A DNA stretch of 64,000 nt from a virus (Duplodnaviria; Heunggongvirae; Uroviricota; Caudoviricetes): positions 79,772 through 143,771 of the IMG/VR virus record IMGVR_UViG_3300042879_003909; one strand, written 5' to 3'. Of this stretch, positions 3,773-55,857 are shown piece by piece (positions within the stretch are counted from its first letter, which is position 1; every line of letters starts with the position of its first letter). Under the pieces are notes generated by a model that was given only the letters and a program-made list of their open reading frames with translations, was not told where the DNA came from and did not search any database. The translations under genes were made by a program, and so were the position numbers.

Positions 3773-4516
3773 TTAAACCTCAATTAAACCAGACAACTTA
3801 CCAGACTCGATTTCCTTGATGACCTTACTAAGCTTGTTCCATGTATCTCTTTTGTTTTTTAGAGAACAGCTTTTCGCGCCATACTTAATTCTAACAACAT
3901 GGATGCCTTTTGACAAGAGCAATCCATTTTTTATTGTATCTTGTTTGATTGTCTTTTGCAATTTTTCTTCGCCAAAAATAGGCATAAAATGAAGAGGTCC
4001 ATCTATTTCTATAGCGACTTTTAGATCTTTCAAAAATAAATCGACCTTGTAATCTCCGCCTATATTGTCTTTATAGATAGTAACATTATATCCAGCAGAA
4101 GTCAACATTTTTCTTATATATTTTTCTATTTTGGAGCCATCAATAGAAGCTTTTCTAAGGGCTTCTCCGGCTTTTGTTTGCCTCTCATGTTTTTCATTAT
4201 CCGACAAAGACTCCCATCTTTCTTTCGCCATTTCTGAGAACTTTTCTTTTTTGTTTTTGGGCATCTTTTTCCATGCCGCATGTCTTTTTTCCGAGATTAA
4301 ATTTTTAGTACTTTCTTTAAGATTTTTGCCCCGGGTAGGATGGGCAGACCTGCCTCTAGCAATAGCTAGTGATTGAGACTCTTGATAGCTTCTTCTTTGA
4401 ATATTATGTTTTTTTAATATACGATAAATTTTAATCGGATATGTAGAAAATTCTTCCGCGATTTCCGGGACGCTTTTTCCAGATTCATATGCTTTAATTA
4501 TTTTAAGCTCATCCAT
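3773..4516 (-). CDS. free-standing endonuclease-like protein: N-terminal HTH plus C-terminal DUF559/Vsr-like endonuclease domain (putative homing endonuclease)
   Basis: C-terminal module DYKVDLFLKDLKVAIEIDGPLHF...GIHVVRIKYG matches the D-F/Y...IEIDG..H...RF pattern shared with ORFs 22185-23072 and 34862-35365; N-terminal helix-turn-helix-like segment (SVPEIAEEF..IYRILKK). Confidence 0.5.
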   Translation of the reverse strand: MDELKIIKAYESGKSVPEIAEEFSTYPIKIYRILKKHNIQRRSYQESQSLAIARGRSAHPTRGKNLKESTKNLISEKRHAAWKKMPKNKKEKFSEMAKERWESLSDNEKHERQTKAGEALRKASIDGSKIEKYIRKMLTSAGYNVTIYKDNIGGDYKVDLFLKDLKVAIEIDGPLHFMPIFGEEKLQKTIKQDTIKNGLLLSKGIHVVRIKYGAKSCSLKNKRDTWNKLSKVIKEIESGKLSGLIEV

Positions 4517-4964
4517 TTACTATCTCCAATAATTTACTTGATTGCCAGTCTGACATAATATCTTTTACTTTAATATTTGCATAGTTCTGTATCATATCTG
4601 CATGATCTATGCTTCTAGCCACAATTCTTATGGATGGGTCTCTTAGTATCCTCATATTTTCTTCAAAGTCTTGAGCAGACCTCAGCCATTCTAGATCGTA
4701 GAGATACAAATATTTCTTTGCTACGCTATTAATCTTCTTTAGCGTATTGGCTGTTTGTAAACTAGTGGCAAATATATGACCATCCCAATACGGCAAATAG
4801 TAGGAATTAATAATCGCAAAATTCATATTAATCGGGGGCGGTGCTAAATTGTGGTAAAAACAGCACGTAGACACCTTATTACTGGATAGTTTATTAAACT
4901 CTCTAATCATGAAATAAGAATTTTGAGAAATAGAAATGTCATCTAAAAATGAAGCTATTTTCAT
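4509..4964 (-). CDS. hypothetical protein (first gene of the glycan cluster)
   Basis: ORF only; co-oriented and overlapping its neighbours. Confidence 0.3.
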   Translation of the reverse strand: MKIASFLDDISISQNSYFMIREFNKLSSNKVSTCCFYHNLAPPPINMNFAIINSYYLPYWDGHIFATSLQTANTLKKINSVAKKYLYLYDLEWLRSAQDFEENMRILRDPSIRIVARSIDHADMIQNYANIKVKDIMSDWQSSKLLEIVNG

Positions 4965-4965
4965 T

Positions 4966-5823
4966 TTATTCTCCTAGTATTTTATTTATTATAAAATTTG
5001 CTGTAGCCGATGGGCTTAAATTGTTTTCCCAAAACTTCCTATGGCTAGTAGATAGTTCTTGCAGCGTAGGAGATAATAACAATTTATCGATATATTTGCT
5101 AGACCATGTAGGCACACAAAAATGAGGACTGTCCTTCATAAATTCATAGTTGTTTTGATATATACACATTACTATACATCCGCACTGCATGGCTTCGTAA
5201 AATCTAAAAGTATCTAGGCTAGCAGACCCCCAAGGAACTAATGCAATTTTTGTATCGCTCATTACGCTAGAATAAACCTCCGGGCCTAATCCCTTATTCC
5301 AGCCTTCATAGAAATGAATAAAAGAGCCGGGCCTATCTTTGTACGAACTAGCAAATTGAAAAAATTCCTGTCTAGTGTATGGATCATATTGTCCAATAAA
5401 AGAAACATCATACTTACGTTCTTTGATAGGTTTTTCTGCCGTACCAGTAAACCAAGACGTTGAACCTAGTTGTAGCTCAACAAGCTTAGGATGCTGTATA
5501 AAATGGCCGGGCGAAAATATTACGCTTAAATCCTTGCTTTTCTTTGGTAAATAATTCATGAATACGGCGGCTACTTCTGAAAAAGAGGTTTCCGGCGGAA
5601 AATATGAATGTCCTTCGGCAGATAGTATAACAACAATAGCATATTTTGTTACGATATTAAAAACTGGCTGTTCATGTCTTCTAACATAAAGTCCCCAGCT
5701 ATCATCGAAAGTTTGAGTTAATTTTTCATATATTTCCGACACATGTTTCGATTCACACGTATCGGGCGTTTGATTAAAAATTTTCATTAAAATATTCCTT
5801 TCGCCATTTTCTTCCGCCAGCAA
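4966..5823 (-). CDS. exostosin-like (GT47-like) glycosyltransferase
   Basis: C-terminal motif LVPWGSASLDTFRFYEAMQCGCIVM resembles the exostosin/GT-B signature (S..R..EAL..GCIPV). Confidence 0.5.
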   Translation of the reverse strand: MLAEENGERNILMKIFNQTPDTCESKHVSEIYEKLTQTFDDSWGLYVRRHEQPVFNIVTKYAIVVILSAEGHSYFPPETSFSEVAAVFMNYLPKKSKDLSVIFSPGHFIQHPKLVELQLGSTSWFTGTAEKPIKERKYDVSFIGQYDPYTRQEFFQFASSYKDRPGSFIHFYEGWNKGLGPEVYSSVMSDTKIALVPWGSASLDTFRFYEAMQCGCIVMCIYQNNYEFMKDSPHFCVPTWSSKYIDKLLLSPTLQELSTSHRKFWENNLSPSATANFIINKILGE

Positions 5824-6535
5824 AGTGTCTAATTACGGTATCTATCGACCTAGTTGGAATCATGTAAAACTTATCTTCCCCATCTTCTGATGGAACGTGT
5901 GTTACATTCCATACCGAGGGCAAGATTTCTACATTATGGTATAGCTCTTGTAGACTGTATATAGTATCTTCATCGACCGAAGAATGCCAGCCCCAATGCT
6001 TCATTAAAATAAAAGGTGTCCAGCTATGCCTTTGAATTCCTGCTAAACTATACCATGATGCCTGTTCTGTAAAAATATGCCAAAAAGAGCTTTGTTCTCC
6101 CATTGAGCCAGTAGTAATTTTATCGTTGAGTTTCTGATATCTTTTTTCCGATAAAATGTTTTCTATTAAGTCATAGCTCCAGTCATTTAGTGACAATGTA
6201 TAGGCTCCCATACAATGCGTATTACATGAATCTATGGCATAAGCAAAGCTTTTACATGTTTGAAATGGTACAGAATGATCTACTATAGCCATATCTGCAT
6301 CTATTTGTGTTACAATATCTCCTTCTTTTAAAAATTCATTTTTTACCATTTGTTGAATATTATAAAATTTATTCCATACAAACGATCCCCTAAAAGGTTT
6401 TTCTGTGTGGCCATATTCTATATATTCAAAATTATGTTTTAAGCAATATTTTTTGTTATTATTACGAGTATACTTTTCATAAAAATCTTGTCGCCAATCA
6501 TTATATGCAGCTACTACAATTAGGTATTTTTTCAT
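5774..6535 (-). CDS. GT-A fold nucleotide-sugar transferase (GMA12/MNN10- or GT34-like)
   Basis: YCLKHNFEYIEY and a DxD-type motif IDADMAIVD; N-terminal hydrophobic start. Confidence 0.4.
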   Translation of the reverse strand: MKKYLIVVAAYNDWRQDFYEKYTRNNNKKYCLKHNFEYIEYGHTEKPFRGSFVWNKFYNIQQMVKNEFLKEGDIVTQIDADMAIVDHSVPFQTCKSFAYAIDSCNTHCMGAYTLSLNDWSYDLIENILSEKRYQKLNDKITTGSMGEQSSFWHIFTEQASWYSLAGIQRHSWTPFILMKHWGWHSSVDEDTIYSLQELYHNVEILPSVWNVTHVPSEDGEDKFYMIPTRSIDTVIRHFAGGRKWRKEYFNENF

Positions 6536-6539
6536 ATTA

Positions 6540-7211
6540 TTAGTCTTGTATAGATGTTTTAAAGTTATTTTGCTTACATATGTATGGGATAGTATGATAT
6601 ACTTTAAAATTATTTACATAAAATATGTGGTTTAATTGCCAATCCCAAGATAAATGAAATTTCTTAAATGTATTTAATATTTTTATGGCTGTTTCTTTTT
6701 TGAAGATCATTGAGGAGGTCGTGTTAGTTGCTGGATGCTTAGCTAATAAAAAATTATCAATCATACATTCGTATTTACATAAAGAATGATCAAACGCCCC
6801 GCCTATTACGATAACATCCCAGTCGAATGGACATGATTTAGCTAATGATTCTATCATTTTTTCAGATGTGCCATTTAAAAACAAACAGTCATCCTCTAAA
6901 ATCATAGCATATTCATTATCTGAAGCAGCTAATTTTTTTAAAATTTCTACATGTTTAATCATCAAAGATATTTCTGAATCTTTTAGTATTCTATATTCAC
7001 CGCCTCCACACTTATTTTTTGTTATCTTAGCTGTTTCTTCAAATTTTTGTCGATCTGCCTCATAATACTCGCTTATAATTTCTTTAGTTAAATCTTCTCT
7101 ATCATAATTTTCAATTAATTCTATATCGCTAGCACCTATTTTACTTAACTCCTGTAGTATATATTGTTTTCTTTCTTTTAGTTTTGTATAGTGGGCTACA
7201 TATATTTTCAT
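6540..7211 (-). CDS. glycosyltransferase family 25-like
   Basis: N-terminus MKIYVAHYTKLKERKQYILQEL resembles the GT25 start (IYVINL..s.eRr); DDC acidic motif (ILEDDCLF). Confidence 0.45.
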   Translation of the reverse strand: MKIYVAHYTKLKERKQYILQELSKIGASDIELIENYDREDLTKEIISEYYEADRQKFEETAKITKNKCGGGEYRILKDSEISLMIKHVEILKKLAASDNEYAMILEDDCLFLNGTSEKMIESLAKSCPFDWDVIVIGGAFDHSLCKYECMIDNFLLAKHPATNTTSSMIFKKETAIKILNTFKKFHLSWDWQLNHIFYVNNFKVYHTIPYICKQNNFKTSIQD

Positions 7212-7843
7212 TATTTTTCCTGCTTTGTAAATAGAACATTTCCCATGTCCATGTATTGTAAATCTTCAAAGATCACTTTAAATCCATTATCCAGTAACCA
7301 ATTTTTATATTCTGGATATTTTACTACTCCATCATATGTATCAATTAAAGAAACTTCGGTATACAAGAATTTTATTTTAGACATAGCTAATGGAGAGTTT
7401 TTTAACAATATTGGCTCATATCCCTGCATATCTAGCCAAGCTAAGTCGATATGATCAATATTATTTGATTTAATCCAGTCGTCTAAACACAAAGTTTTAA
7501 CTTTTTCTGTTGATTTAAATGTTATTTCTTTATGAAACCATAAATGATCTTTTGGTGGCAATAAAGACGAAGATCCCCAGCTTTCATTAAATCTATCGCT
7601 AATATGTAGCTCTTCATATCCATCTATATAACTAAGAGCAGCTTTTTTTAAAGTTACATTTTTGTAATTTTTTGTTTTTGCTAATGCTTGCAAGTACAAA
7701 TTATCCAATGGCTCAAAACCATATATTTTACCTAGTGGAAAATTTTCAGCAAAAAATAAAGTATCACTACCATCCGCTACGCCAGCTTCTAGTATTGTAC
7801 AGTTTTCTACAAGACTTCTTAAAATCCAATGTTGAATATTCAT
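7211..7843 (-). CDS. FkbM-family SAM-dependent methyltransferase
   Basis: ILEAGVADGSDTLFF (GANDG-like) and LAWLDMQGYEPILL (DxEGxE-like) motifs. Confidence 0.55.
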   Translation of the reverse strand: MNIQHWILRSLVENCTILEAGVADGSDTLFFAENFPLGKIYGFEPLDNLYLQALAKTKNYKNVTLKKAALSYIDGYEELHISDRFNESWGSSSLLPPKDHLWFHKEITFKSTEKVKTLCLDDWIKSNNIDHIDLAWLDMQGYEPILLKNSPLAMSKIKFLYTEVSLIDTYDGVVKYPEYKNWLLDNGFKVIFEDLQYMDMGNVLFTKQEK

Positions 7844-7855
7844 TAAAATTCCTTA

Positions 7856-8521
7856 TCAAATAATATTATCATAATCCATATATAAAGCATCATTTATTGA
7901 TAATCTATCTATCAATTTATAATTTTTAGACTTCATATATTCTTCAGTAAAACACCTATAATATTCCAGAGATGTTGTTTCCATTAATATAAATTTTGGT
8001 CTTACGCGATCAAAATCAAGCCCATTTAAAACTTCTATCTCGTATCCTTCTACGTCTAAACTAAAAAAATCAACGGTTTGTATGTTATGTTTATTTAATA
8101 AATATTGTAGCGTACAACAATTTATACTGACTGCATTAGATATATTTTCTGACTTAAACTTATTGTGCCAGAAAATCATTTCTTCATCAAAATATTCAGG
8201 AATATCGTTAATAGAATTCATTAAACCGTTATGTGATGGATTATCAAAATTTCCTTTAACAGTAGAATCTTTATAATTTGAGTTTACTAATGCATAATTT
8301 TCATGAATACATTTTGGTCTATTTGTTTTACATTTTAAATAATTTGTTGTTCCAGCTTCAATTAAAAGCCCTCGCCAATTTAATTTCTGTTCTAATAATA
8401 AAGTGTTAGATTGAGTGATGCCATCATTTGCTCCACATTCAATAAAAAAACCATCCTTGTAATTTAAATATTTTAATAATTTTTCGTCTATTTCGTGCAA
8501 GCTATGCATATTGTTCACCAT
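7856..8521 (-). CDS. FkbM-family methyltransferase
   Basis: FFIECGANDGITQSN and FFSLDVEGYEIEVLNG motifs. Confidence 0.6.
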   Translation of the reverse strand: MVNNMHSLHEIDEKLLKYLNYKDGFFIECGANDGITQSNTLLLEQKLNWRGLLIEAGTTNYLKCKTNRPKCIHENYALVNSNYKDSTVKGNFDNPSHNGLMNSINDIPEYFDEEMIFWHNKFKSENISNAVSINCCTLQYLLNKHNIQTVDFFSLDVEGYEIEVLNGLDFDRVRPKFILMETTSLEYYRCFTEEYMKSKNYKLIDRLSINDALYMDYDNII

Positions 8522-8525
8522 TCAA

Positions 8526-9374
8526 TTATTTGATTAATAAATTTTTAATTTTATTTTTGATTGATTGTAAATTAAAATCTGTATTTACTAGTGGTTCATT
8601 TATAATCTCATTATATAATTCATTATCATTATCTATCTTTATAACAAAATTTTTAAGATCTTCTAAAGATTCAAAGTCTCTAACATCTATAAAGCATTTT
8701 TTATTAAAATCTAAATGAACTTTTTGGTCAGCCCAGTATATCGGAATTGTACCGGCAGTTTTAGCGTGTAGTAATTTTTCTGTATAATATCCGTCATAGA
8801 TTGAGTTTTCTGGACATATAGAAAATTTATACATAGATAGTTTTTGATATTTGTCTAATTCTCCTTCTGTATGATTGCCAAAAGGTCTACCGTATCCATC
8901 CACTTTTTTATATGCTGACAAAGTATTGAATAAGTCATATCTTAATTGTCTAGGAGAACTAAATACTGTTGCGCAAAACTTAGTTTTAGGCGTTCTTATA
9001 AATTCGTTATCGTTTATTTTTGATGGGTGTATTAGATATTGCGGATTAGTATACGTCTCTACATTAAACCAATCTATATACAGATGATATAAAGGTATCC
9101 TAATGTTTTTTCCACCATATGAATCAAAATCAAATGTAAAAGAATAATCACATTCATCAAAGTTTGGCCTAATATTTTCTCCAGTATAAAAAATTTTTTT
9201 AGTATTGTTTCTATTGATAGCATGATGATTATTACCAAAACAAGAATATATAATATAATTGCATTGCTGCACGGGAGCTAGTTGTACATCTCCAAATATT
9301 TCTCTGAACAGATTTATGAAAAAATTATTATTAACATCAAATCCGCCCCAAAAATCTAAAAAATTAATTTTCAT
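8526..9374 (-). CDS. GT10 alpha-1,3-fucosyltransferase-like glycosyltransferase
   Basis: Canonical GT10 motif YKFSICPENSIYDGYYTEKLLHAKTAGTIPIY (compare YKFYLAFENS..GYVTEKfw). Confidence 0.6.
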   Translation of the reverse strand: MKINFLDFWGGFDVNNNFFINLFREIFGDVQLAPVQQCNYIIYSCFGNNHHAINRNNTKKIFYTGENIRPNFDECDYSFTFDFDSYGGKNIRIPLYHLYIDWFNVETYTNPQYLIHPSKINDNEFIRTPKTKFCATVFSSPRQLRYDLFNTLSAYKKVDGYGRPFGNHTEGELDKYQKLSMYKFSICPENSIYDGYYTEKLLHAKTAGTIPIYWADQKVHLDFNKKCFIDVRDFESLEDLKNFVIKIDNDNELYNEIINEPLVNTDFNLQSIKNKIKNLLIK

Positions 9375-10183
9375 TATTTCTCCATCATTTTGATTATATA
9401 ATCCGTAGTAGCTTCATAAGTATATTTTTCTATAAAAGTTTTAATTCCGTTATTTATTTTATTATTTATCTCTTTCTCGGTCATATTAGCTAATTTGTCA
9501 TATAGATTAAATATATCTTTCACATGACACAAAACACCATATTCTTCGAAATTATCAAAATATGGAACCCAAGGATGATCGTAAATATAAACTGGTATAG
9601 AGTGGCACATCAGAGCTTCATAAATTCTAAAAGATGTTTTTCCATAGCCTCTGGGACATAATGAAAATACGGTTTGATTCATTATATTTAAGTACGAATT
9701 ATAATCATATCTTTTATCAGTAATCACTACATTTGGTTTATCTTTTAATTCATTTGTCATTATTTCTCTAACAGAATGTCTACCATAAATAGCCCCCACA
9801 AAGCTGCACAAAAAGCGTCTTTTTTCAATAGATATATTTGGCGCATTGCAATAAAAATAACTATTTAAAGGTATCGGATAATCCCCCATGCCCCCACTAG
9901 AAAAAATTAACAAATCTAAATCATGAATTTTATTAAGTATACCGTCGTCCCATTGAACTATTGTAAAGTATCTTTTGGATCTATCTAAAGAGTCTAGATA
10001 TCTTTGTAAATCAGATGTATCATCTTGTCCATAGTTTTTAGATATATAATAATTTGTCCAATAAATTGGTAGATATTCTCTTTTAAGTTTTGGTTTATTT
10101 AAAGAAATATATTTTCCAAAATACTCTTCAAAAATCATAATATTTTTAGGCGGATTTTCGTGATTTGTCGAGATATCAAACAT
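9374..10183 (-). CDS. exostosin-like (GT47-like) glycosyltransferase
   Basis: FSLCPRGYGKTSFRIYEALMCHSIPVYIYD exostosin-type C-terminal motif. Confidence 0.5.
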   Translation of the reverse strand: MFDISTNHENPPKNIMIFEEYFGKYISLNKPKLKREYLPIYWTNYYISKNYGQDDTSDLQRYLDSLDRSKRYFTIVQWDDGILNKIHDLDLLIFSSGGMGDYPIPLNSYFYCNAPNISIEKRRFLCSFVGAIYGRHSVREIMTNELKDKPNVVITDKRYDYNSYLNIMNQTVFSLCPRGYGKTSFRIYEALMCHSIPVYIYDHPWVPYFDNFEEYGVLCHVKDIFNLYDKLANMTEKEINNKINNGIKTFIEKYTYEATTDYIIKMMEK

Positions 10184-11066
10184 TAGAAGATCCTATAAAA
10201 AATTTAGATTTTGGTTGCCAGCTAGAATGCCATAAATGACAGGCCATGCTATAAGGTTCTATAAATTGATTTATAAATTCTAAAGATTGATTTTCTCTAT
10301 ATGCTGCCGGAAATGGATGAAAAATTTTTGATGGAAAAATCAATATGTCTTCAGTGCTTTTATTTTTTAAATGATAAAGTATAGCGGCTGTTAATAACCA
10401 AGGCCCGGTCTGATATAGAACTCTTGTTTGATCACACGATATTTCATTTATGTATTTAGTATCATCTACGTTATAAATGCATATTTTTAGTATATGATGA
10501 TTTGGTACAGATGCCATAATGCCATTATTTATTTGAACTGGTTTTTCTAAGCATATACCAGCATAAAATGAAGTAGATTCATGAAGCTTTGCAAAATCGG
10601 TAGAACAGCACAAAAAATCTGTGTCTACGTATAATCCGCCCATTGAATGAAGTATTTCATATCTTAAAACGTCTGATTTTATACCAAAACTTTTGGATCT
10701 TTCAAATATTGCTAAAGATGGCCGATTTAATAAAAATTTTTTAGCTTTATAATCGTCCCATATTTCTACATCAAATCCTGTTTTTTGCTTCCAGTCATCT
10801 ATAATTTCGCAGTACGCTTCTGGCAGTTTACTACCTAGCCATATAAAATGTATAACTTTTGGTATAGGATTCGATGTTTTACTATTTTGATTTTTATAAA
10901 AAATGTTTTTAATTAATTGCCAATCTAAATCTAATTCGGCAAGGTTTATATCAAATAAAGAAGTTTCAACTTGACATCTTTCAAAAAAATTATCTTCATG
11001 ATTTAACATACAGAGCATCTCCCCATGACGCACTTTGCCAAAAAGTATATACATTAGTAAAGCCAA
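10176..11066 (-). CDS. GT32 (Gly_transf_sug / OCH1-like) glycosyltransferase
   Basis: IHFIWLGSKLP and MGGLYVDTDF (DxD) motifs typical of GT32; the true start is probably an internal Met, which reduces the overlap with the upstream gene. Confidence 0.55.
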   Translation of the reverse strand: MALLMYILFGKVRHGEMLCMLNHEDNFFERCQVETSLFDINLAELDLDWQLIKNIFYKNQNSKTSNPIPKVIHFIWLGSKLPEAYCEIIDDWKQKTGFDVEIWDDYKAKKFLLNRPSLAIFERSKSFGIKSDVLRYEILHSMGGLYVDTDFLCCSTDFAKLHESTSFYAGICLEKPVQINNGIMASVPNHHILKICIYNVDDTKYINEISCDQTRVLYQTGPWLLTAAILYHLKNKSTEDILIFPSKIFHPFPAAYRENQSLEFINQFIEPYSMACHLWHSSWQPKSKFFIGSSNV

Positions 11067-11637
11067 AGTTTTTTAAAAATTCATCAATTTCATTAATCAT
11101 AGGGCACCCTTCATAGACCTCATTTCTATTAACTTCTGCAACTATAAAGTCTATGTGCTTTAAATTATTAATGGCACCTTTTAGGACTTTTAACTCATAT
11201 CCCTGAACATCTATAGCTAAAAAGTTGTATTGACTCATGTTTATTTGTTCTTGCTCAACTACGTCGTCTAATTTTTTAATTTGGCATTTTTCTATAGTTC
11301 CATCAAAAATTACAGAAGGATGTTCGGTCAAATGAACTTTGGGCTTTAAAAAAGAGCTAGATGCACCAGAGCCATTTACTATTCCTCCCTCTGTTTGAGA
11401 TATATTAAGCTCTAGTTCTGTTTCCTCGTCTCCCAGTCCAATATTATAGACCTTTTCTGCTGGTAGTAATTTAGATTTAATGATATTGTATAGATGTTCT
11501 TGTGGCTCAAACAAAATTGTATTTGTTAAACCTTCTTTTCTATATTCTTTAATTTCTGATCCGCAAAATGCTCCAACATGAATGATACCACGAACTGGGC
11601 CAAAAGAGTTTGAAATTTGTTCTATGCTAAATATCAT
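10996..11637 (-). CDS. FkbM-family methyltransferase
   Basis: IIHVGAFCGSE and FLAIDVQGYELKVLKGA motifs. Confidence 0.55.
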   Translation of the reverse strand: MIFSIEQISNSFGPVRGIIHVGAFCGSEIKEYRKEGLTNTILFEPQEHLYNIIKSKLLPAEKVYNIGLGDEETELELNISQTEGGIVNGSGASSSFLKPKVHLTEHPSVIFDGTIEKCQIKKLDDVVEQEQINMSQYNFLAIDVQGYELKVLKGAINNLKHIDFIVAEVNRNEVYEGCPMINEIDEFLKNFGFTNVYTFWQSASWGDALYVKS

Positions 11638-12458
11638 ATTAATTTTATCTCCGTATGTGGCGAAAAAACTTGACTAAAATCTAAGTTGTTTAAATTAATC
11701 CTAAGTCCATTAAGATATAGCTGATTCAAATGATCTTCGCAGTATGAATACTGATCGCCCGATCTATTCTGATACTCTAATTGTACTCTATTGTTTGGAC
11801 TATTAACAACACAGCTATACTTTGGGCATGCTTTTATGGCCCCGACCTCAAAGAAGTATCTTTGTAAAAGTCCCTCTAGTTTGTTTGGTGTTTGCGTTAC
11901 TTTTCGTATATTATTTCCTTGATATATTTCATATAAAATATTGTATATCTTTTGTTTATTAAAAATGTGGCCATCAACAGACAAGGGATAATTCCAATAA
12001 CTTTGTGGCAATATATTCATTCTATTCCAAAATAATGAATTATCCGCCTCGGCAAATGCTGGCTGGGGATCATTATACCAAACATCTCCCATTTGTCTTT
12101 TTGCTATATTTAGACCCAGTCTTAACGAATGACAAGCATAACTGTCGTCATCTAGATAAGATAGATCTAAAGATGGAGCACTTCTATAAAATATGTCATC
12201 GTCCGTAAAAAATACAATATATTTATTTTTAGAATTTCTACATGATTCCCAAGTATCTTTATAAAATTCTATTTGTTCTATGGATATAACTTTAGATCTG
12301 TATTCCTTGAATAAATTATTGTATGACTCTTTGTGTTCTTCATCAGCTTTCCATATGATTCTTATCTGATCGCATTGTTTGAAGTTTTGTTCTATGCTTC
12401 TTAGCAATAAATCTAGCTGTAGGGCCCTATTTTTACTAAACACTATAGCAGATATCAT
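11634..12458 (-). CDS. putative GT-A-like glycosyltransferase
   Basis: N-terminus MISAIVFSKNRALQLDLLLRS resembles a GT2/GT-A start; otherwise only weakly supported. Confidence 0.3.
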   Translation of the reverse strand: MISAIVFSKNRALQLDLLLRSIEQNFKQCDQIRIIWKADEEHKESYNNLFKEYRSKVISIEQIEFYKDTWESCRNSKNKYIVFFTDDDIFYRSAPSLDLSYLDDDSYACHSLRLGLNIAKRQMGDVWYNDPQPAFAEADNSLFWNRMNILPQSYWNYPLSVDGHIFNKQKIYNILYEIYQGNNIRKVTQTPNKLEGLLQRYFFEVGAIKACPKYSCVVNSPNNRVQLEYQNRSGDQYSYCEDHLNQLYLNGLRINLNNLDFSQVFSPHTEIKLI

Positions 12459-13443
12459 TCATTTTTTCCTTATTGTCGTAAAACCAATTTAGAGTTAAGT
12501 CCAAGCCTTCGCTAAGCCTATATAGCGGCCTGTAATCTAGCAATGTCTCTGCCCTTGCTATAGATAAGCTTCTTCTGGGTTGACCCTCTAATTTATCGCC
12601 CCTGAATATAAAACCACCATTGTAGCCCATCTTTTTAGCTAATAAGTGAACCAGTTCTCTAATTGTTGTTTCATCTCCCGTGCCTACATTTATTGGACTA
12701 GCTCCAGTTCTTTTATCCATAGATAAAATCAAAGCATTTACGCAATCATCTACGTATAGAAATTCTCTAGTAGCTTTTCCTGAGCCCCAAACTTCTATAG
12801 AGTTTAGCTTATTATTTATGGCATTATCGATTTTTAATATCAGGGCCGGGATAACATGGCTCGTTGTAAGATTGAAATGATCTTCTGGCCCATACATATT
12901 AGCTGGGATAATAACGGTTGAGTTAAATTCATATTCTTTTTCATACGCTATTAACATTTCGTTGATTGTTTTTTTAGCTATGCCGTATGGAGCATTGGTT
13001 TCTTCTGGATATCCATTCCACATATCTTCTTCAGAAAAAGGTGGTGCTGTATACTTTGGATAACTGCATACTGTTCCAACCATAATAAACTTTTTTAATT
13101 TGCCATACTTTCTGCACGATTCAATCAGATTAATCCCCATAGCAAGATTTTCATAAATAAACATTCCCGGGTGTTGTGAGTTAGCTAATATTCCTCCTAC
13201 TCTAGCTGCTGTGTGGATCACTATGTCCGGCTGAGTATGATTGATTAGATAATCGACATATCTTTGATTGGTTAAATCGCATTCTGTCTTTCCAGACAGT
13301 TTTACTATATTGTCATATCCAAGATATTCAAGTTTATTGATTAAATTCTTTCCAAGAAACCCCTGTGCTCCACTAACTAAGATTTTCATCATAATATTTA
13401 TTCCATGAAGATAAAATTGTTTCAGACAAATCTTTATAACCAA
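12436..13443 (-). CDS. fcl: GDP-L-fucose synthase (GDP-4-keto-6-deoxymannose 3,5-epimerase/4-reductase)
   Basis: Rossmann motif VSGAQGFLG; SDR catalytic YGIAKK (YxxxK); extended similarity to Fcl/GMER (HTAARVGGILAN..FIYENL..GTVCSYPK..PYGIAKK..PANMYGPEDHF..HVIPAL). Confidence 0.75.
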   Translation of the reverse strand: MVIKICLKQFYLHGINIMMKILVSGAQGFLGKNLINKLEYLGYDNIVKLSGKTECDLTNQRYVDYLINHTQPDIVIHTAARVGGILANSQHPGMFIYENLAMGINLIESCRKYGKLKKFIMVGTVCSYPKYTAPPFSEEDMWNGYPEETNAPYGIAKKTINEMLIAYEKEYEFNSTVIIPANMYGPEDHFNLTTSHVIPALILKIDNAINNKLNSIEVWGSGKATREFLYVDDCVNALILSMDKRTGASPINVGTGDETTIRELVHLLAKKMGYNGGFIFRGDKLEGQPRRSLSIARAETLLDYRPLYRLSEGLDLTLNWFYDNKEKMNDICYSV

Positions 13444-14425
13444 ATAGAGATAAAAATTGTGCCGCTCTATGATAGTTTGTATGATTTTTTAGAACAATAG
13501 CTTGTCCAGTCTTTGATATAATATTAGCCTGATCCCTGTTTTGTAAGAAATAATCTATTTTTTGTTTAAAGTCTTCTTCGTTATCAGCAAAAACCATTCC
13601 ATCTTGAAATATTCTTTTGTGGGAGGCTACATTATCACCTATACAAAATCCCCCGGCGGCTAATACTTTAAAACTTCTTTCATTTATTTCTATACCGTAT
13701 TCATGAGCATGTGGCTCGCTCAAATTGGGGCATATTTTTGCCGAAACAAAAAGATCTTTAACTTTATTTTCATTAATGTGTCCGCAATATTGGTTTACCC
13801 CAGTCCATCCCTGATTTCCGAAAATTTTAATATTGTATTTATTAACAGGATAACATAGTGGAAGCAAATACCTGTTGATAGTTTGGGCCTTATACGACCA
13901 ATATCCTCCAACAAATCCTATGTCGCACTCTAAAGATGGATCGTAAGAGCCTCCTAAATAAGAGTGAACATCGGCACACAGCATAATTCCGGCCACTGGT
14001 ATACCCGCTTGTATAAAGCGAGAATGTGTCATATTAGCCTGATCTTGTTCATAATGAATGTAAACAAAATTGGGCTGCCCGGTGGTCCTATGTAGTTCTT
14101 CTACGGCCTTAAACTCCGCTTCTGATGTCTGCAAAATGTTAAATCTTGGATCAGTTTTAAAATCTCCACAGTCACCAGCCCTTAATGCCACTTGAAGATG
14201 TGGTCTATTTTTGATACATTTGACGGTAGCCCTATCTAGATTATAAAGCTGGCCAATAAATATGTCTGGCTCAAATTCGTCAAAAACCCTGAAAGCTGGA
14301 TCTTTTACATTATACATCTTTGCTTCAATAGAGGCAATACTGTTAAAAGCATTTATCCAAGCCATTCTTTCAAAATAGTGTGCATGGTAGCCATCATTAG
14401 CTATCAATATTTTTAATTTTTTCAT
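13373..14425 (-). CDS. CgeB-like (DUF3880/Glyco_trans_1_2) GT-B glycosyltransferase
   Basis: C-terminal FKVLAAGGFCIGDN...FADNEEDFKQKIDYFLQN...LKNHTNYHRAAQFL resembles the CgeB family. Confidence 0.4.
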   Translation of the reverse strand: MKKLKILIANDGYHAHYFERMAWINAFNSIASIEAKMYNVKDPAFRVFDEFEPDIFIGQLYNLDRATVKCIKNRPHLQVALRAGDCGDFKTDPRFNILQTSEAEFKAVEELHRTTGQPNFVYIHYEQDQANMTHSRFIQAGIPVAGIMLCADVHSYLGGSYDPSLECDIGFVGGYWSYKAQTINRYLLPLCYPVNKYNIKIFGNQGWTGVNQYCGHINENKVKDLFVSAKICPNLSEPHAHEYGIEINERSFKVLAAGGFCIGDNVASHKRIFQDGMVFADNEEDFKQKIDYFLQNRDQANIISKTGQAIVLKNHTNYHRAAQFLSLFGYKDLSETILSSWNKYYDENLS

Positions 14426-15068
14426 TTTTTAAATCCTTGACAGAGTCTATTTCTACTATTTGCATATTGTGTGGTTCATAACAATGAAAAGTTCCGCCTC
14501 TTTCGATTACCATATTAATAATTTCAAAAACAAATTTTTCATCAATTTTTTCCCAAATAATTTCTTTTAGTATTTTTAATTCTTTGCCAGTAAAAAAAGC
14601 TATTTGACACCATTTCTTTTTTAACCCATAGGATAGATTTGCAACTATATCACCATTAGTAACGATTCCTACCTCTTTATCATGTATTTGATTTTTTGTA
14701 TCAACTATTATGAACGATTTTTCTTTTGGTACATCAATTGTATCAACGTTAAACAATAGGTCGCCATGCATTACCAAAACAGAATCTACAGAATTTTTTA
14801 AGGCTAGTTTGATACCATGACTCGGATTTGTATTTATAAAATCTTTATTTTCTATAAATTTAATCTTGCTATCAGATAGTTTTTTGTTTAATTTACAGGA
14901 CTTATATCCTGTAACAACAGTGATATCTTTTCCAAAAGTTTTATGAACATTACTAATTTGGTAGTCTATTAATGTTTTTTCTTTTATTTTTAATAAAGAT
15001 CTAGGCTCATGGCTTTTCATGCGGGCGCAGACGCCAGCCGCTAAAATGATTGTTTGATTTTTTTTCAT
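14397..15068 (-). CDS. sugar-phosphate nucleotidyltransferase
   Basis: N-terminal TIILAAGVCARMKSHEPRSLLKI matches the NTP_transferase G-loop (ILAAGxGxRx..PK.L). Confidence 0.5.
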   Translation of the reverse strand: MKKNQTIILAAGVCARMKSHEPRSLLKIKEKTLIDYQISNVHKTFGKDITVVTGYKSCKLNKKLSDSKIKFIENKDFINTNPSHGIKLALKNSVDSVLVMHGDLLFNVDTIDVPKEKSFIIVDTKNQIHDKEVGIVTNGDIVANLSYGLKKKWCQIAFFTGKELKILKEIIWEKIDEKFVFEIINMVIERGGTFHCYEPHNMQIVEIDSVKDLKNEKIKNIDS

Positions 15069-15871
15069 ATTCTTTGCTGTAAAATCTTTGCATTTTCGTT
15101 AAAAATTTCCGTAGTCATTTTTAAAGATTGATTTTTTCCCGTCATTCTTACTAGTGATAACGACTCTGGAACGTGTTTCATTATACATACTTTCGAAAGC
15201 CTAAGCCATAAGTCATAGTCTTCGGTGCATCCAATAAAGCCTTTGCTTAATGGGCCATGTAGTCTAACATCATATGCATCTCCATTTTCCAGCAATACTT
15301 TTTCTAGATAGGACTTTCTTATTAGGGCCCCGGAATGAACTATGCATCTTTGCATCAATACGGAAGGACTGTATGGCTCCTTATATTCTCTTTTAATATA
15401 TCCGTCCTGAAATATATCATAGTCTCCATAAACCACCCCAACATTTGGATCACTCATTTGTGCTAGTAGTTTTTCTACCTTGTTGGGATAATAAATATCA
15501 TCTGCATCCAGTATGGCAAAAAAATCAGACGATGACCACAGTCGTTTAATCAATGTATTTCGGGCAGCAGAAGCGCCCTGATTTTCTGTATTTATATATG
15601 TAAAATTTGCGTTTGATATTATGTTAGGCTTTATAGACGTAGCTTGAGATAAAGAATAAATATAGCTCACTATCTCATTATGAGAATTATCTGTTGACCC
15701 ATCGTTAATAATCCCAACATGACAGCGATATGTTTGATTAAGGGCGCTTTTTATAGCATCAACCACCATGTCTCCATAATTGTAGTTAGCTATTATAATA
15801 GAAACTTTATTCATTAAAAATATCCTTCCAGTCTGATATACAATCTGGGTCTTCAGCCCGAAGTGACTCAA
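15065..15871 (-). CDS. glycosyltransferase family 2
   Basis: VSIIIANYNYGDMVVDAIKSALNQTY, INDGSTDNS and ILDADDIYY (DxD) motifs. Confidence 0.65.
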   Translation of the reverse strand: MSHFGLKTQIVYQTGRIFLMNKVSIIIANYNYGDMVVDAIKSALNQTYRCHVGIINDGSTDNSHNEIVSYIYSLSQATSIKPNIISNANFTYINTENQGASAARNTLIKRLWSSSDFFAILDADDIYYPNKVEKLLAQMSDPNVGVVYGDYDIFQDGYIKREYKEPYSPSVLMQRCIVHSGALIRKSYLEKVLLENGDAYDVRLHGPLSKGFIGCTEDYDLWLRLSKVCIMKHVPESLSLVRMTGKNQSLKMTTEIFNENAKILQQRI

Positions 15872-16610: not shown

Positions 16611-17023
16611 TCCAATGTGCCCACTATAATTAAAGTAAAGTTTTTAATTTGCTTTTGATTAATTTTAAATCCGAGTCTATTTAATATATCAAAAATAAAA
16701 TCAGAACTAATAAAACTCTTTATTGATTGACCGCTGTGGAAAAAACAATCATTGAAGTCATTAAATGTTATAGAGCCCGTAGTCAACATATGAGATAATA
16801 GCTCGATATCTGTCAAATATAGTATCAATTTGCCGCCCTTTTTGATTTTAGAAGCGATTAATTGTAAAATATTTTCAATTTCTTTTAATGAAAATGAATG
16901 AAGTATATCGTCTACCATTATTTCTGTAGCTTCACCGTCATCAGCTATGATATTAAGTGAATTTGGACTATTTACCCATAGGCTATCTTCGTGGTCGTTG
17001 GTGTTACTAAAAGCTATTTTCAT
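16607..17023 (-). CDS. hypothetical protein
   Basis: ORF only. Confidence 0.3.
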   Translation of the reverse strand: MKIAFSNTNDHEDSLWVNSPNSLNIIADDGEATEIMVDDILHSFSLKEIENILQLIASKIKKGGKLILYLTDIELLSHMLTTGSITFNDFNDCFFHSGQSIKSFISSDFIFDILNRLGFKINQKQIKNFTLIIVGTLE

Positions 17024-18006: not shown

Positions 18007-19102
18007 TCAATATCTCCCGAATAATTTTCCCTACTGACTGATGACTAAATTTTTCTTTAGTTTCTTTAGAAAGTTTTTCTTTATTGCTTATAAGATAATC
18101 TTTATTTTCATAAACCGATCTCATGGTTGATCTTAAAGACTGTACATTGATATCTTCCCACATTTCTGCGGAACTTTGAATTTCTGGGAGGGCTTGCTGC
18201 ATACCAAAACAATCATCTATGCTAGACTGAATTCCGCAAGAGTTACTCATCGCATAAGTAGCTGTACCAGTATTATTGGTATAAATTAAATTTAATCCTA
18301 GAGCCTGCGCCTCTAATGCAGGAATGCAACAGGCTTCTCCGTGACTGGAACAAACAAAAGTATGACATTGATTAAGGATAGATATATAATCATCATTTTT
18401 CATATGTCCACAAATAACAGAAATGTTTTGGTATTTTTTTCTTATTTTAAGCCCGGACTTTATATATTCATTTAGTTTATTAAATTCTGCCATACAATGA
18501 TCGCTATTCATGTTTGAACTTAGTTTAATAAATAAATTAACCGGTTCTGCTGGATGAAACTCTGTATAGAATGCCCTTAGTAAGGCCGACAGATTCTTTC
18601 TATTATTCCACTCTCCAATAAAGCAAAAATTAAACACATTTTCTAGCTCGGATATCGACGCTGTTCTTTTGTTAATATTGTACTTTTCTGGATCAATGCT
18701 GTATGTTACAACATCAATAGGTATTGATACTTGGCTACGTATGGATGCTTCTTTGTTTTGATCGCACATTACCCAAGCTCTGTCTAGTAAATTTATATAT
18801 TTATGCCATTTACTAAAATAAAAATCTTGTGATTCAACACAATAAAACCCAACATTTTTAATTTTGGAATTATAGTAATAATGCTTTGGTAAACAGTGCT
18901 GAATACAAATACTTGCCCCTGTTACTTGTTTTTTTTCAAGGCTTTCTATGATTGGGTTAGTGCCTCTTTGTGGTCCGAAAGAAATAGCTCTTGGTACAAC
19001 ATCAATACCAACAGAGTGCATAGCTAAAATATTTGCTTCAGCCGCAGACCCCCAGCCCCCTACATCTTTATAATTCCCTATGTATAAAACTTTCATAAAC
19101 AA
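17993..19102 (-). CDS. GT4-family glycosyltransferase
   Basis: CSSHGEACCIPALEAQALGLNLIYTNNTG motif; N-terminus MKVLYIGNY...GGWG. Confidence 0.55.
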   Translation of the reverse strand: MFMKVLYIGNYKDVGGWGSAAEANILAMHSVGIDVVPRAISFGPQRGTNPIIESLEKKQVTGASICIQHCLPKHYYYNSKIKNVGFYCVESQDFYFSKWHKYINLLDRAWVMCDQNKEASIRSQVSIPIDVVTYSIDPEKYNINKRTASISELENVFNFCFIGEWNNRKNLSALLRAFYTEFHPAEPVNLFIKLSSNMNSDHCMAEFNKLNEYIKSGLKIRKKYQNISVICGHMKNDDYISILNQCHTFVCSSHGEACCIPALEAQALGLNLIYTNNTGTATYAMSNSCGIQSSIDDCFGMQQALPEIQSSAEMWEDINVQSLRSTMRSVYENKDYLISNKEKLSKETKEKFSHQSVGKIIREILNGLT

Positions 19103-20757
19103 TTCATCCTATGAGATTCCCATGTATTATAATATTCTCTTAGACTTACTATCTGCTTATAAGCATCTTGGTAGCTAAAAGCTTTCATTTTTAAAGCATC
19201 TTTATTATGGCTTTCATTAATATAATAAGAGCTTAAATTTTCTACTGTTGCCTTATATGTTAATTCTTTAAGCAGTCTTCTCCATAAAAAGCTGCCTAGC
19301 AATTCTGGCTTACATAAAACTTCGCATATTAAAAAATTAGCTTGATCGAGCGGTGACTTTAGCGATTCGTCTATTGCTTTTGGCTTTCTTATATCTGCCG
19401 GGGACTTCCATGTTTTACTATCTTCTTTTATATCACAAGACTTGAAATAGTCTATCCATCTAGAGGCGGTTTTATCCCAATTATAGCAAGATAATGTTTT
19501 TATGTACGTGTCTCTACCCATCTTTGTCAATTCTTCTTTTGTTTTTGACGTAAGATTATGTAAGATGCTAATAAAGTCCTCATTATCCGGCACTGCTCTT
19601 TTACATCCTGTCTCTGGCTCTAGAACAAATTCTTTGACCTTTATAGGAATAGCATTGATATTTTTAATAACAGAAGACATGGCCGAATAATCGATAGAGC
19701 ACAATACATTGCCACATTGGGCCGCTTCTAGTTGAGGCATACCAAAGCCTTCGCTGTTGGCGTATTGTACATAGATATCGAATACATTGTAGACTTTAGC
19801 TAATTCAGTTTCAGACAAAGGGTTATTAATGCCGCAAATACCAGCGGTGAAATTATTACATTTATTACAATATTTTACAATATCGCTAAAAAATGAACAT
19901 GTGATGTCGCTACATTTTGAACACTTGTAAGTAAATAAAACCTTATTAGTAAGACCGTTCTGTATTAATAAATTAGGTATATCCCATCCCACATCGGGGA
20001 AAGATGTATGACAATAAAGATAAACATCCTCTCTAGATGATTGGTCCAAGAATTTTCTAAACGAATAAAATAAATCTGGGTATAATTTGCGGCGCTGATT
20101 ACGCATGACTGTGCCAATAATATATGGGGCACCGTCCATACCAAAAGCACTTCTTAGTCTTGCCTTATCTTTAATTGGATAAAAATTATTAGAAGCACAC
20201 GGAGAAGCCACGGTAACAAAATTATTAAACTGCCCCTGTTTTCTTAATGTCTCTATACCAAACTCTGAATATGTAAAAATAGCATCGGCTTTAGAGTAAG
20301 TATCTATCCATTCTATGTTTTGTGGTTCGGCATCTACCGTAGGCATTAATGCTAGGTTATAAAAATTTCTAAATGGAGAACTTTGCTCAAATGAAACCAT
20401 CCAAAAATCTCTAATATCAAAAACAAAATTTGGCTTATAGGATAATAAGATAGAATTAAAAGAAAACTCCCCAAATTCTGCTGTGGGCGATTTTTTGTAT
20501 GCTTCAAATTCCGGCGTATTATTCTTCGGCTTATTAGCAAAAACCGTCCAAGGAACATTTTTGATCTTTGGATCATCTTCGCTACAATAGCATGCCAGCT
20601 CGGCAATTTCAAAGTCTTCAACTTGATTTAGTCTACTTAATACTTCTTTAGAATAAACAGAGTATCCAGTCGGTAGCTGTGAAAATTCTGTTACCATTAG
20701 TATCTTTTTTTTGGCCATAAAGTCTCCAATAAATAAAGGCCCGCTTTCACGGGCCAA
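19093..20757 (-). CDS. GT4-family glycosyltransferase with an inserted Cys-rich (zinc-ribbon-like) segment and a long C-terminal extension
   Basis: KKILMVTEF N-terminus; EGFGMPQLEAAQCGNVLCSIDYSAM motif; Cys cluster CSKCSDITCSFF..YCNKCNNF. Confidence 0.55.
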   Translation of the reverse strand: MARESGPLFIGDFMAKKKILMVTEFSQLPTGYSVYSKEVLSRLNQVEDFEIAELACYCSEDDPKIKNVPWTVFANKPKNNTPEFEAYKKSPTAEFGEFSFNSILLSYKPNFVFDIRDFWMVSFEQSSPFRNFYNLALMPTVDAEPQNIEWIDTYSKADAIFTYSEFGIETLRKQGQFNNFVTVASPCASNNFYPIKDKARLRSAFGMDGAPYIIGTVMRNQRRKLYPDLFYSFRKFLDQSSREDVYLYCHTSFPDVGWDIPNLLIQNGLTNKVLFTYKCSKCSDITCSFFSDIVKYCNKCNNFTAGICGINNPLSETELAKVYNVFDIYVQYANSEGFGMPQLEAAQCGNVLCSIDYSAMSSVIKNINAIPIKVKEFVLEPETGCKRAVPDNEDFISILHNLTSKTKEELTKMGRDTYIKTLSCYNWDKTASRWIDYFKSCDIKEDSKTWKSPADIRKPKAIDESLKSPLDQANFLICEVLCKPELLGSFLWRRLLKELTYKATVENLSSYYINESHNKDALKMKAFSYQDAYKQIVSLREYYNTWESHRMNCL

Positions 20758-23072: not shown

Positions 23073-23101
23073 TAGTATGCCTCCTGTTAATAAAACCCAT
23101 A

Positions 23102-49459: not shown

Positions 49460-49460
49460 A

Positions 49461-53590: not shown

Positions 53591-53660
53591 ATTTATAAAA
53601 ATTCCTCCATCATATTATATACAACGGAGGAATAAAATGTATAGCTATATATAAAAAATA

Positions 53661-55855: not shown

Positions 55856-55857
55856 AG

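Follow-up and report, generated by a model that had tools for sequence, protein, structure and literature searches.

We analysed a 64,000-nucleotide stretch of DNA (hereafter, the window) from the viral record IMGVR_UViG_3300042879_003909 and examined a gene cluster for glycan biosynthesis at 4509-20757. The map of open reading frames (ORFs) showed that this region is tiled end to end by 20 ORFs, all on the minus strand, with neighbour spacing that ranges from a 71-nt overlap to a 12-nt gap. Each has a family match or conserved homologues in other contigs, and all 20 are regarded as real genes. A prediction made earlier from the letters of this stretch (the original prediction) had described co-directional, tightly packed genes here, which agrees with the map, and had put their number at about 24, which does not.

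The cluster, 16.2 kb in total with phage genes on both sides, encodes 10-12 glycosyltransferases (GTs), an Fcl-type enzyme, one NTP_transf_3 nucleotidyltransferase, and three FkbM methyltransferases. The GT, FkbM, and NTP_transf_3 assignments were made by Pfam scans at gathering thresholds, and NCBIfam, PHROG, and PDB searches were also used. The original prediction had counted ten GTs, a single nucleotidyltransferase, three FkbM methyltransferases, and Fcl. Most of its GT calls were upheld by Pfam: eight scored above the gathering thresholds, and two fell below them but are otherwise supported. Two more GTs, recognised by profile or structure, bring the count up to 12. The nucleotidyltransferase and the three FkbM enzymes were confirmed by Pfam, and Fcl was recovered as an Fcl/GMER-type enzyme. 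Because the cluster encodes this enzyme together with a GT10 alpha-1,3-fucosyltransferase and three FkbM methyltransferases, its product can reasonably be expected to be a fucosylated, O-methylated glycan, as had been predicted.

The main new result is the division of the cluster into two parts, a lineage-wide syntenic core (about 11.6-20.8 kb) and an exchangeable low-GC tail (4.5-11.6 kb). We compared two sets of relatives: 46 loci with full 10-kb flanks around the 328-aa GT of the cluster, and 25 informative relatives selected through the homology of their exonuclease, independently of the cluster. Labels such as L002, L174, and L241 denote loci in this analysis. Core genes were found in 42-46 of the 46 loci at 40-48% identity, beside values of 46/46 and 54% for DnaE and 38/46 and 51% for the exonuclease. 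Three GT4 genes, the GT2 gene, and the nucleotidyltransferase gene are present in all 46, with mean identities of 40-47%. The gene order DnaE-SSB-GT-GT-GT is conserved in the relatives. A homologue of the 554-aa GT follows DnaE/SSB in all 25 relatives picked by exonuclease homology alone, and one is also present in each of the 46 loci picked by the 328-aa GT (mean identity 47%). The conservation of the core is near that of DnaE and therefore fits a function integral to phage reproduction.

The tail genes, on the other side of the division, are sporadic, each occurring in 2-19 of the 46 loci. Tail ORFs of the relatives that have no homologue in the window form 80 families, which include other GTs (GT2, GT8, and GT25), several methyltransferase families, DegT aminotransferases, short-chain dehydrogenases/reductases (SDRs), sulfotransferases, cytidylyltransferases, acyltransferases, a HAD enzyme, and a GHMP kinase. 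GC content is 27.4%, the lowest in the window, in the block 6540-10183, which spans the GT25 gene, two FkbM genes, the fucosyltransferase (FucT) gene, and a GT47-like gene; GC at third codon positions is about 20% there. The corresponding GC contents are 33.5% for the core, 34.5% for the rest of the arm, and 34% for the window on average.

The best homologues of the tail genes cluster together in unrelated jumbo-phage contigs of 281 kb (IMGVR_UViG_3300036770_008729) and 344 kb (IMGVR_UViG_3300042308_001511). The FucT cassettes of these contigs match the window at 43-45% identity for FucT, 50% for the 253-aa protein (L002), 30-32% for GT25, and 31-33% for the GT47-like enzyme, and they also hold an FkbM gene. 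The cassette in L002 has a GC content of 27.7%, low like that of the window's tail. Unlike the tail genes, nothing else in the 20-kb loci of the jumbo contigs matches the window; the tail thus looks like an exchangeable cassette that was apparently passed between different phage lineages. Homing-endonuclease genes recur at the distal boundary of the cluster, in the window and in L241 and L242, and a GIY-YIG gene lies there in L335. These endonucleases may drive the exchange of the variable cassette. The features of the cluster and its borders are summarized in Table 1.

Table 1 Features of the glycan cluster and its flanks, in window coordinates. Fractions refer to the 46 loci.
Position	Strand	Feature	Evidence and distribution
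1664-2572	+	302-aa all-beta, G/S/T/N-rich, very conserved convergent neighbour; candidate virion component or acceptor	567 homologues, 45-96% identity
2599-2626	.	Strong hairpin terminator where the minus-strand arm meets the plus-strand arm	12-bp stem (6 GC pairs) between an A-run and a T-run
3773-4516	-	Homing-endonuclease-like gene (HNH/Vsr-like) flanking the tail	PHROG HNH/homing endonuclease, E 3e-13
4509-4964	-	Distal boundary gene, 151 aa	No family match; homologues at the cluster's distal end in 10/46, e.g. L241, L242
4966-5823	-	Tail: GT47/RXYLT1-like paralogue	Pfam RXYLT1_C 19 bits (cutoff 27); 11-19/46
5774-6535	-	Tail: 253-aa protein, no family assigned	No Pfam, PHROG, NCBIfam, or PDB match
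6540-7211	-	Tail: GT25 glycosyltransferase	Pfam Glyco_transf_25 24.7 bits, marginal (cutoff 24); 2/46
7211-7843	-	Tail: FkbM methyltransferase	Pfam Methyltransf_21 51.8 bits; 9/46, about 31% identity
7856-8521	-	Tail: FkbM methyltransferase	Pfam Methyltransf_21 77.5 bits; 4/46
8526-9374	-	Tail: predicted GT10 alpha-1,3-fucosyltransferase, catalytic part only, 282 aa	Pfam FucT_N 80.3 and Glyco_transf_10 71.8 bits
9374-10183	-	Tail: Exostosin GT47/RXYLT1-like glycosyltransferase	Pfam Exostosin/RXYLT1_C, 50.2 and 40.3 bits; 7-8/46
10176-11066	-	Tail: DXD-type GT-A glycosyltransferase (Gly_transf_sug/TcdA-TcdB-like)	Pfam TcdA_TcdB 40.2 and Gly_transf_sug 30.1 bits; 9/46
10996-11637	-	Tail: FkbM methyltransferase	Pfam Methyltransf_21 65.7 bits; 13-14/46
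11634-12458	-	Semi-core gene 10: predicted GT-A-fold glycosyltransferase, invariant DD in TDDD motif	No Pfam model; 28/46, 39% identity
12436-13443	-	Core gene 9: Fcl/GMER-type GDP-L-fucose synthase (SDR)	42/46, 44% identity
13373-14425	-	Core gene 8: Glyco_trans_1_2 glycosyltransferase	Pfam PF13524 80.2 bits; 45/46, 48% identity
14397-15068	-	Core gene 7: MobA-like sugar-phosphate nucleotidyltransferase	Pfam NTP_transf_3 50.5 bits; 46/46
15065-15871	-	Core gene 6: GT2 glycosyltransferase	Pfam Glycos_transf_2 83.7 bits; 46/46, 44% identity
15807-16610	-	Core gene 5: 267-aa protein, N-terminal four-Cys module and GT2-like (GT-A) domain	39-42/46, about 28% identity
16607-17023	-	Core gene 4: 138-aa protein, no family assigned	blastp homologue in 40/46, about 38% identity
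17020-18006	-	Core gene 3: GT4 glycosyltransferase, 328 aa	Pfam Glycos_transf_1 62.8 bits
17993-19102	-	Core gene 2: GT4 glycosyltransferase, 369 aa	Pfam Glycos_transf_1 37.3 bits; 46/46, 40% identity
19093-20757	-	Core gene 1: GT-B (GT4-like) glycosyltransferase, 554 aa, Cys-rich insertion; directly downstream of SSB	Pfam Glycos_transf_1 24.1 bits (cutoff 26.4)
20761-21090	-	SSB, proximal boundary, preceded by split DnaE	Pfam SSB 61.7 bits

Among the core GTs, the family profile of the 328-aa GT4 matches the GT4 enzymes BshA, PglA, and TarM in PDB, and a search with the GT profile found 221 relatives in IMG/VR. In the 267-aa protein, C8, C11, C28, and C57 are invariant. Its domain aligned with the cluster's GT2 family by hhalign (probability 66%, E 5.5e-5), and its Pfam GT2 match has an E value of 0.051. 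The AF2 model of the 274-aa semi-core protein (pLDDT 91.3, pTM 0.90) gave TarP, SpsA, and GnT-I as top Foldseek matches (probability 1.0, E 2e-6). The hhalign comparison of this family with the GT2 family gave no alignment support, and the GT-A fold comes from structure prediction; a few of its 724 metagenomic homologues have a precomputed PF00535 match. The locus yields two GT-A families that lack Pfam models.

Against NCBIfam GDPFucSynFcl, the Fcl-type enzyme scored 266 bits, where 500 are required at equivalog level. GDP-L-fucose synthases take all the leading places among its PDB matches (E 1e-60 to 1e-54), and the next SDR class follows at 1e-27. In the PDB alignment it keeps what we take to be the catalytic T/C (Ser/Cys) and Y/K motifs of the E. 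coli enzyme. It has Glu at the presumed equivalent of E. coli His179, a position that is Asn in 7ll6. Self-comparison of the window proteins found no Gmd paralogue of this enzyme inside the 64-kb window. The GDP_Man_Dehyd model was matched by two representative ORFs from the tails of the relatives. For the nucleotidyltransferase, NCBIfam gave only sub-threshold GlmU N-terminal and MocA-like matches.

The 138-aa core protein showed a very weak, non-significant likeness to a methyltransferase, in the C-terminal half of the latter. No usable match came from a relaxed Pfam scan of this protein, the 253-aa tail protein, or the 151-aa boundary protein, and PDB sequence and profile searches found nothing significant for the 138-aa, 253-aa, 267-aa, and 274-aa proteins. 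The 253-aa protein contains a DADMAIVD motif, noted by eye, which suggests a GT-A enzyme.

The best PDB match of the putative fucosyltransferase is H. pylori alpha-1,3-FucT (E 1e-24, residues 3-265), and the enzyme contains the sequence ENSIYDGYYTEK, which we take to be a GT10 fucosyltransferase motif. We assign it to the CAZy GT10 alpha-1,3/4-fucosyltransferases on the basis of sequence, and its activity is predicted. Its closest homologues (37-45% identity) are on the unrelated jumbo-phage contigs L002-L005, and GT25 homologues adjoin FucT in L002-L004. FucT-like genes were found in 8-9 of the 46 relatives at about 30% identity. In L005 (IMGVR_UViG_3300042878_002525), a single ORF of 2480 aa (6209-13651) has a GT10-like segment 37% identical to the window FucT and may be a giant multi-domain glycosyltransferase. 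The two GT47-like genes of the tail are paralogues by blastp (E 7.6e-6). In the closest relative L174, synteny ends after the Exostosin-type gene (67% identity), and gene content differs beyond it.

The cluster is viral, as the original prediction had claimed. It follows the SSB and split DnaE genes, with gaps of 3-9 nt. Further along the same strand are a DnaE-associated exonuclease, an exonuclease, a deoxynucleoside monophosphate (dNMP) kinase, primase, DnaB, dUTPase, a UvsX-like recombinase, a PhoH fusion, ribonucleotide reductase, ThyX, and dCMP deaminase. On the other side, beyond the terminator, a convergent plus-strand arm encodes proteins of 1800, 510, 1048, 678, 128, and 302 aa. The proteins of 1800, 510, 1048, and 678 aa (window 17-1619 and L009 1-8843) had no informative Pfam or PHROG match, and a reading of this arm as a structural module was not supported, for want of informative family matches. 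The arm includes Cys-rich proteins, the 678-aa protein with 4.6% Cys and the 128-aa protein, which matches phrog_13558, with 10.9% Cys.

The exonuclease profile gave more than 500 matches in IMG/VR, on contigs of up to 172 kb. Among the largest members of the lineage are the 172-kb contig IMGVR_UViG_3300005613_000006 and the 171-kb contig Ga0502770_0000011 (JGI 3300051216). The closest relative, IMGVR_UViG_3300014720_000027, is collinear with the window at 70-85% amino-acid identity. These relatives came from alignment-based scans; an exact-DNA search of the window in IMG/VR and a single-protein scan with the C-terminal half of DnaE gave no match. No related deposited phage was found: megablast of the cluster against INPHARED gave nothing, the best DnaE match was 36% identical, and the best tblastn matches to the 554-aa GT were at 21-23% identity in cyanophages S-EIVl and S-CBS4. 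A sigma-70 scan returned 100 sites against 102 expected by chance; because such sites are no commoner than chance, internal promoters cannot be inferred from them.

DnaE is encoded in two pieces, the N-terminal part by one gene (894 aa, 23102-25786) and the C-terminal part by another (373 aa, 21100-22221). The N-terminal part closes with approximately 100 residues that start with Cys and resemble an N-intein, and the C-terminal part opens with approximately 38 residues that end in ...VSN|S and resemble a C-intein. Between the halves lies a free-standing NUMOD3+DUF559 endonuclease gene (22185-23072), with a homologue at the same site in the relative L137. By these sequence features, the locus (21100-25786) is a putative "fractured gene" with a split intein.

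Several other features of the window were observed. A second small glycosyl module (48539-54578) has a GT4 gene at 49461-50507 (Pfam 56.6 bits) among ORFs of 270-310 aa with partial conservation in relatives; the ORF at 48539-49459 is 84% identical in L022, and a Methyltransf_24 gene lies at 53039-53590. A 583-aa protein (38455-40206) joins PhoH to a P-loop domain at its N-terminus. Full-length relatives of this fusion (L015 and L020, about 41% identity) are found on IMG/VR contigs of 370-494 kb; huge phages thus share the fusion. An SPFH/Band-7 protein (31721-32275) shows 87% conservation in the closest relative, and a small protein (44947-45411) has a sigma-70 region-4 domain and is a possible phage transcription factor. 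There is also a single tRNA gene, tRNA-Ile with anticodon TAT (55857-55933, minus strand).

Gene families point to Planctomycetota as the likely host. Full-length homologues of a DUF1559/N-methyl pilin-like gene (62905-63885) are 51-69% identical to it, and the closest (69%) is a Pirellula gene from a metagenome-assembled genome (MAG). All but one of these homologues are in Planctomycetota MAG contigs (Pirellula, Pirellulaceae, and Planctomycetaceae). Because the contigs have a GC content of 50-60% and carry no other window gene, we regard them as bacterial and not as mis-binned phage; the phage, at 34% GC, is far from this putative host. Two DUF1501 paralogues are conserved across the phage relatives (57-62%), and DUF1501 is a family typical of Planctomycetota. 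Both families lie in a block of host-like genes (59196-63885), together with an SNase-like gene and a trypsin-like protease. The isolate names of the MAGs suggest freshwater lakes as the habitat. A literature search returned nothing relevant on a described Planctomycetota phage lineage or a DUF1559 phage.

We then consider membrane and export functions. A hydropathy scan of the 20 cluster proteins of the window detected no signal segment and no transmembrane (TM) segment except for one borderline stretch. Among the 562 ORFs in the clusters of the 46 relatives, the same scan found none with at least three TM segments and one with two; no polytopic membrane protein was seen in about 0.5 Mb of related cluster DNA. 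Pfam detected no initiating polyprenyl-phosphate glycosyltransferase, Wzx/Wzy, or ABC exporter in the window cluster. Of the 54 families matched in the Pfam census of the tails, 25 are listed, and no polyprenyl-phosphate transferase, flippase, polymerase, or ABC transporter is one of them. Thus, no membrane or export component was seen in the clusters of this lineage, which favours assembly in the cytoplasm.

Our preferred reading, which we put forward tentatively, is that the cluster is a phage-encoded assembly pathway of soluble enzymes that makes a core oligosaccharide with variable caps, most likely on virion proteins. The core enzymes (three GT4 enzymes, the Cys4-GT2-like enzyme, GT2, Glyco_trans_1_2, the new-family GT-A, the sugar-phosphate nucleotidyltransferase, and the Fcl-type GDP-fucose synthase) would build a conserved oligosaccharide with a 6-deoxyhexose such as fucose. 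GDP-4-keto-6-deoxymannose would be supplied by a Gmd of the host or of elsewhere in the phage genome. The tail enzymes (GT10, GT25, two GT47-like enzymes, the DXD glycosyltransferase, and three FkbM enzymes) would add strain-specific alpha-1,3-fucose, other sugars, and O-methyl caps. Assembly would take place in the cytoplasm on a soluble acceptor, likely virion proteins before or during particle assembly. The gene content, the viral context, the two-part structure, and the lack of membrane components are direct results; the glycan composition, the cytoplasmic site, and the virion acceptor are inferred.

We tentatively favour the phage's own virion proteins as the acceptor. Polytopic membrane proteins occur in all phage systems known to convert the host surface and in nearly all bacterial loci for surface polysaccharides. 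A virion acceptor is favoured because none is seen here, because conservation like that of the replicase is expected of a function integral to making particles, and because the chlorovirus precedent described below matches and virion glycosylation exists in mycobacteriophages. The cluster end adjoins the 3' end of the convergent arm that holds the large proteins and the 302-aa protein; a virion role for the latter is a guess.

A serious rival, which we judge to be somewhat unlikely, is that the cluster remodels the host envelope. The phage GTs would then act at the inner membrane face on host undecaprenyl-phosphate-linked intermediates, and the host would export the altered lipopolysaccharide (LPS) or exopolysaccharide, either to block superinfection or to stop progeny from adsorbing to infected cells and debris. 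GT25, GT10, GT2, and GT4 enzymes are typical of LPS and exopolysaccharide loci and, like FkbM, are common in O-antigen and capsule loci. Since bacterial O-antigen GTs are themselves soluble or peripheral and use lipid-linked acceptors made and exported by other genes, the phage could borrow the initiating transferase and flippase of its host. The variable tail resembles serotype diversification, and hypervariable sugar-tailoring cassettes would also be expected from an arms race over host-surface receptors. The phage carries host-like surface genes, DUF1559 pilin-like and DUF1501, and with the slow growth of Planctomycetes a long infection could make a surface change worthwhile. Our TM scan was a simple hydropathy window and not a dedicated predictor, the 64-kb window contains no capsid, portal, terminase, or tail gene, and no fold match was obtained for the 302-aa neighbour. 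Host-surface modification is also the published reading, itself a proposal, of the clusters in the cyanophages P-SSM2 and S-SCSM2R (PMC7824862, PMC12801897). Apart from the host-like surface genes and the growth rate, these points also weigh against virion proteins as the acceptor.

Several findings nevertheless speak against envelope remodelling. No initiating transferase, flippase, polymerase, ligase, ABC transporter, or membrane acyltransferase was found in the cluster or in the 562 ORFs of the 46 relatives, whereas the known seroconversion modules (Gtr, Oac, and Wzy types) have polytopic membrane proteins at their centre. The core equals the replication genes in conservation and is collinear with them, which would be unusual for accessory exclusion genes, and a tail with a GC content of 27% is unlikely to have been captured recently from a host of 50-60% GC.

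A different soluble end-point is improbable in our estimation. The glycan would in that case be placed on a non-virion phage protein or a host cytoplasmic protein, or be released as a free oligosaccharide or glycoconjugate metabolite. The soluble nature of all the enzymes and the lack of an export system would fit such a product, but the cluster has no genes for peptide, lipid, or aglycone biosynthesis, and a free oligosaccharide product with lineage-wide conservation is not known from any phage. Sugar clusters resembling those of secondary metabolism were raised for cyanophages by Iyer et al. (PMC7824862).

We consider DNA hypermodification, in which the GTs after DnaE/SSB would put sugars on modified bases and guard the DNA from restriction, to be very improbable. 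It would be consistent with the conserved DnaE-SSB-GT-GT-GT order and with the T4 gp1-type dNMP kinase, dCMP deaminase, ThyX, and dUTPase encoded in the window, and phage GTs that build glycans on DNA reportedly exist (Pyle et al. 2024, as cited in PMC12619734). However, 10-12 GTs, three O-methyltransferases, and a fucose pathway far exceed the known DNA glycans, which have one to a few sugars. The set of nucleotide genes is consistent with ordinary synthesis of deoxythymidine monophosphate, and the window proteins that were scanned include no ThyA-family hydroxymethylase, several window ORFs not having been scanned against any library.

Finally, a contiguous host capsule/LPS locus, one of the outcomes that the original prediction had named as overturning it, or a recently host-derived cassette misread as viral would share enzyme families with the cluster but is effectively excluded, since both flanks are phage-like with genes nearly all on one strand as usual in phages, the core is syntenic in hundreds of IMG/VR viral contigs, GC content is 30-34% against 50-60% in the Planctomycetota contigs with the closest DUF1559 homologues (none of which has another window gene), export genes are absent, and the nearest homologues of FucT and its neighbour genes are in other large phage contigs.

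The original prediction also held that a phage rarely invests this much in sugar chemistry and that the cluster is closer to those of chloroviruses and mimiviruses. The first statement is too strong. Large phages with GT-rich clusters have been on record since P-SSM2, which has a 15-gene cluster (PMC7824862), and S-SCSM2R has 13 GTs in at least seven families, including GT10, GT11, and GT25, "possibly the highest number in a marine phage" (PMC12801897), so that the present cluster is at the top of the known phage range but not unprecedented. The clusters of these large T4-like cyanophages (P-SSM2, S-SCSM1, and S-SCSM2R) likewise combine many GT families with nucleoside-diphosphate-sugar epimerases/dehydratases, nucleotidyltransferases, and methyltransferases. 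Their content differs among related phages, a variability also seen in the tail described here, and their function is proposed only (PMC7824862, PMC12801897). No sequence relationship to them was found (no megablast match, and only 21-23% identity for the 554-aa GT). In contrast to these sporadic islands, half of the present cluster is a lineage-wide core collinear with DnaE/SSB; it also belongs to another phage lineage, whose predicted hosts are Planctomycetota, not cyanobacteria.

As for giant viruses, kinship was rejected and the likeness is one of analogy: this is a phage with bacterial-type replication genes (DnaE, DnaB, DnaG-type primase, and SSB). Chlorovirus GTs are soluble and have no signal peptides, which has been used as an argument for capsid glycosylation in the cytoplasm; the GT genes are expressed early, and the glycans consist of a conserved core with variable decoration (PMC5408694, PMC7826918). 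Neither the location nor the expression of the GT genes has to coincide with that of the structural genes, and some chloroviruses without gmd and gmer still carry fucose (PMC5408694, PMC7826918). The present cluster and chlorovirus PBCV-1 share soluble GTs without signal or TM segments, GMER/Fcl, fucose, and O-methylated sugars, the last two being expected here from the genes alone. Conserved and variable parts are seen at the gene level in this cluster and at the glycan level in chloroviruses. Whereas chloroviruses are eukaryotic giant viruses with scattered GT genes, and most have a GMD + GMER pathway, the present locus is a compact, operon-like cluster in a bacteriophage, with an Fcl/GMER-type enzyme and no Gmd in the 64-kb window.

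Phage precedents for virion glycosylation come from mycobacteriophages. Their GTs, with methyltransferases, are reported to modify the phages' own capsid and tail proteins in the bacterial cytoplasm (Freeman et al. 2023). Glycosylation of the capsid and tail tube by phage GTs is likewise stated in the summary given in PMC12619734. These systems consist of a few genes beside structural genes in actinobacteriophages of about 50-70 kb, whereas 20 genes (10-12 GTs) lie here at the end of the replication arm, in a lineage with contigs of up to 172 kb. Seroconverting modules (GtrABC, Oac, and phage Wzy/inhibitors) and O-antigen/capsule loci have sugar-modifying enzymes and share GT families with this cluster. 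They depend on the flippase-like GtrA, GtrB, membrane acyltransferases, Wzx/Wzy, or ABC transporters, in contrast to the clusters of the window and the 46 relatives, which have no polytopic membrane protein. No integrase was found among the window ORFs scanned, several ORFs not having been scanned.

The cluster is set apart by a lineage-wide core collinear with replication genes, a tail apparently traded between phage lineages, and the lineage-wide absence of membrane parts. It also belongs to a lineage without a deposited isolate in the collection searched and with a host that is probably Planctomycetota. The locus adds to a small number of genomic glimpses of probable Planctomycetota phages. 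We advance, with still greater caution than the reading of the cluster itself, a wider proposal: a widespread lineage of large aquatic uncultured phages (contigs to 172 kb, probably on Pirellulaceae-like Planctomycetota) must coat its virions with a self-made glycan, whose core genes are conserved like the replicase and whose fucosylated, O-methylated caps come from cassettes traded between unrelated phages beside homing endonucleases.

Chloroviruses and mimiviruses are established cases of host-independent virion glycosylation, and some mycobacteriophages are the only established cases in phages. Should the target prove to be the host envelope, the replicase-like conservation of the core and the absence of any export gene in the clusters of the lineage would still challenge the view of such clusters as accessory superinfection-exclusion islands. 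If our proposal is true, the product would be the phage equivalent of the capsid glycan of chloroviruses, its virion serotypes would parallel the types of O-antigen, and the pairing of a conserved core with a swappable tail would offer genetic access to the diversification of phage surface glycans. Lineage members occur in freshwater and marine (TARA) metagenomes, and self-glycosylation would then be a core trait of an abundant environmental phage group.

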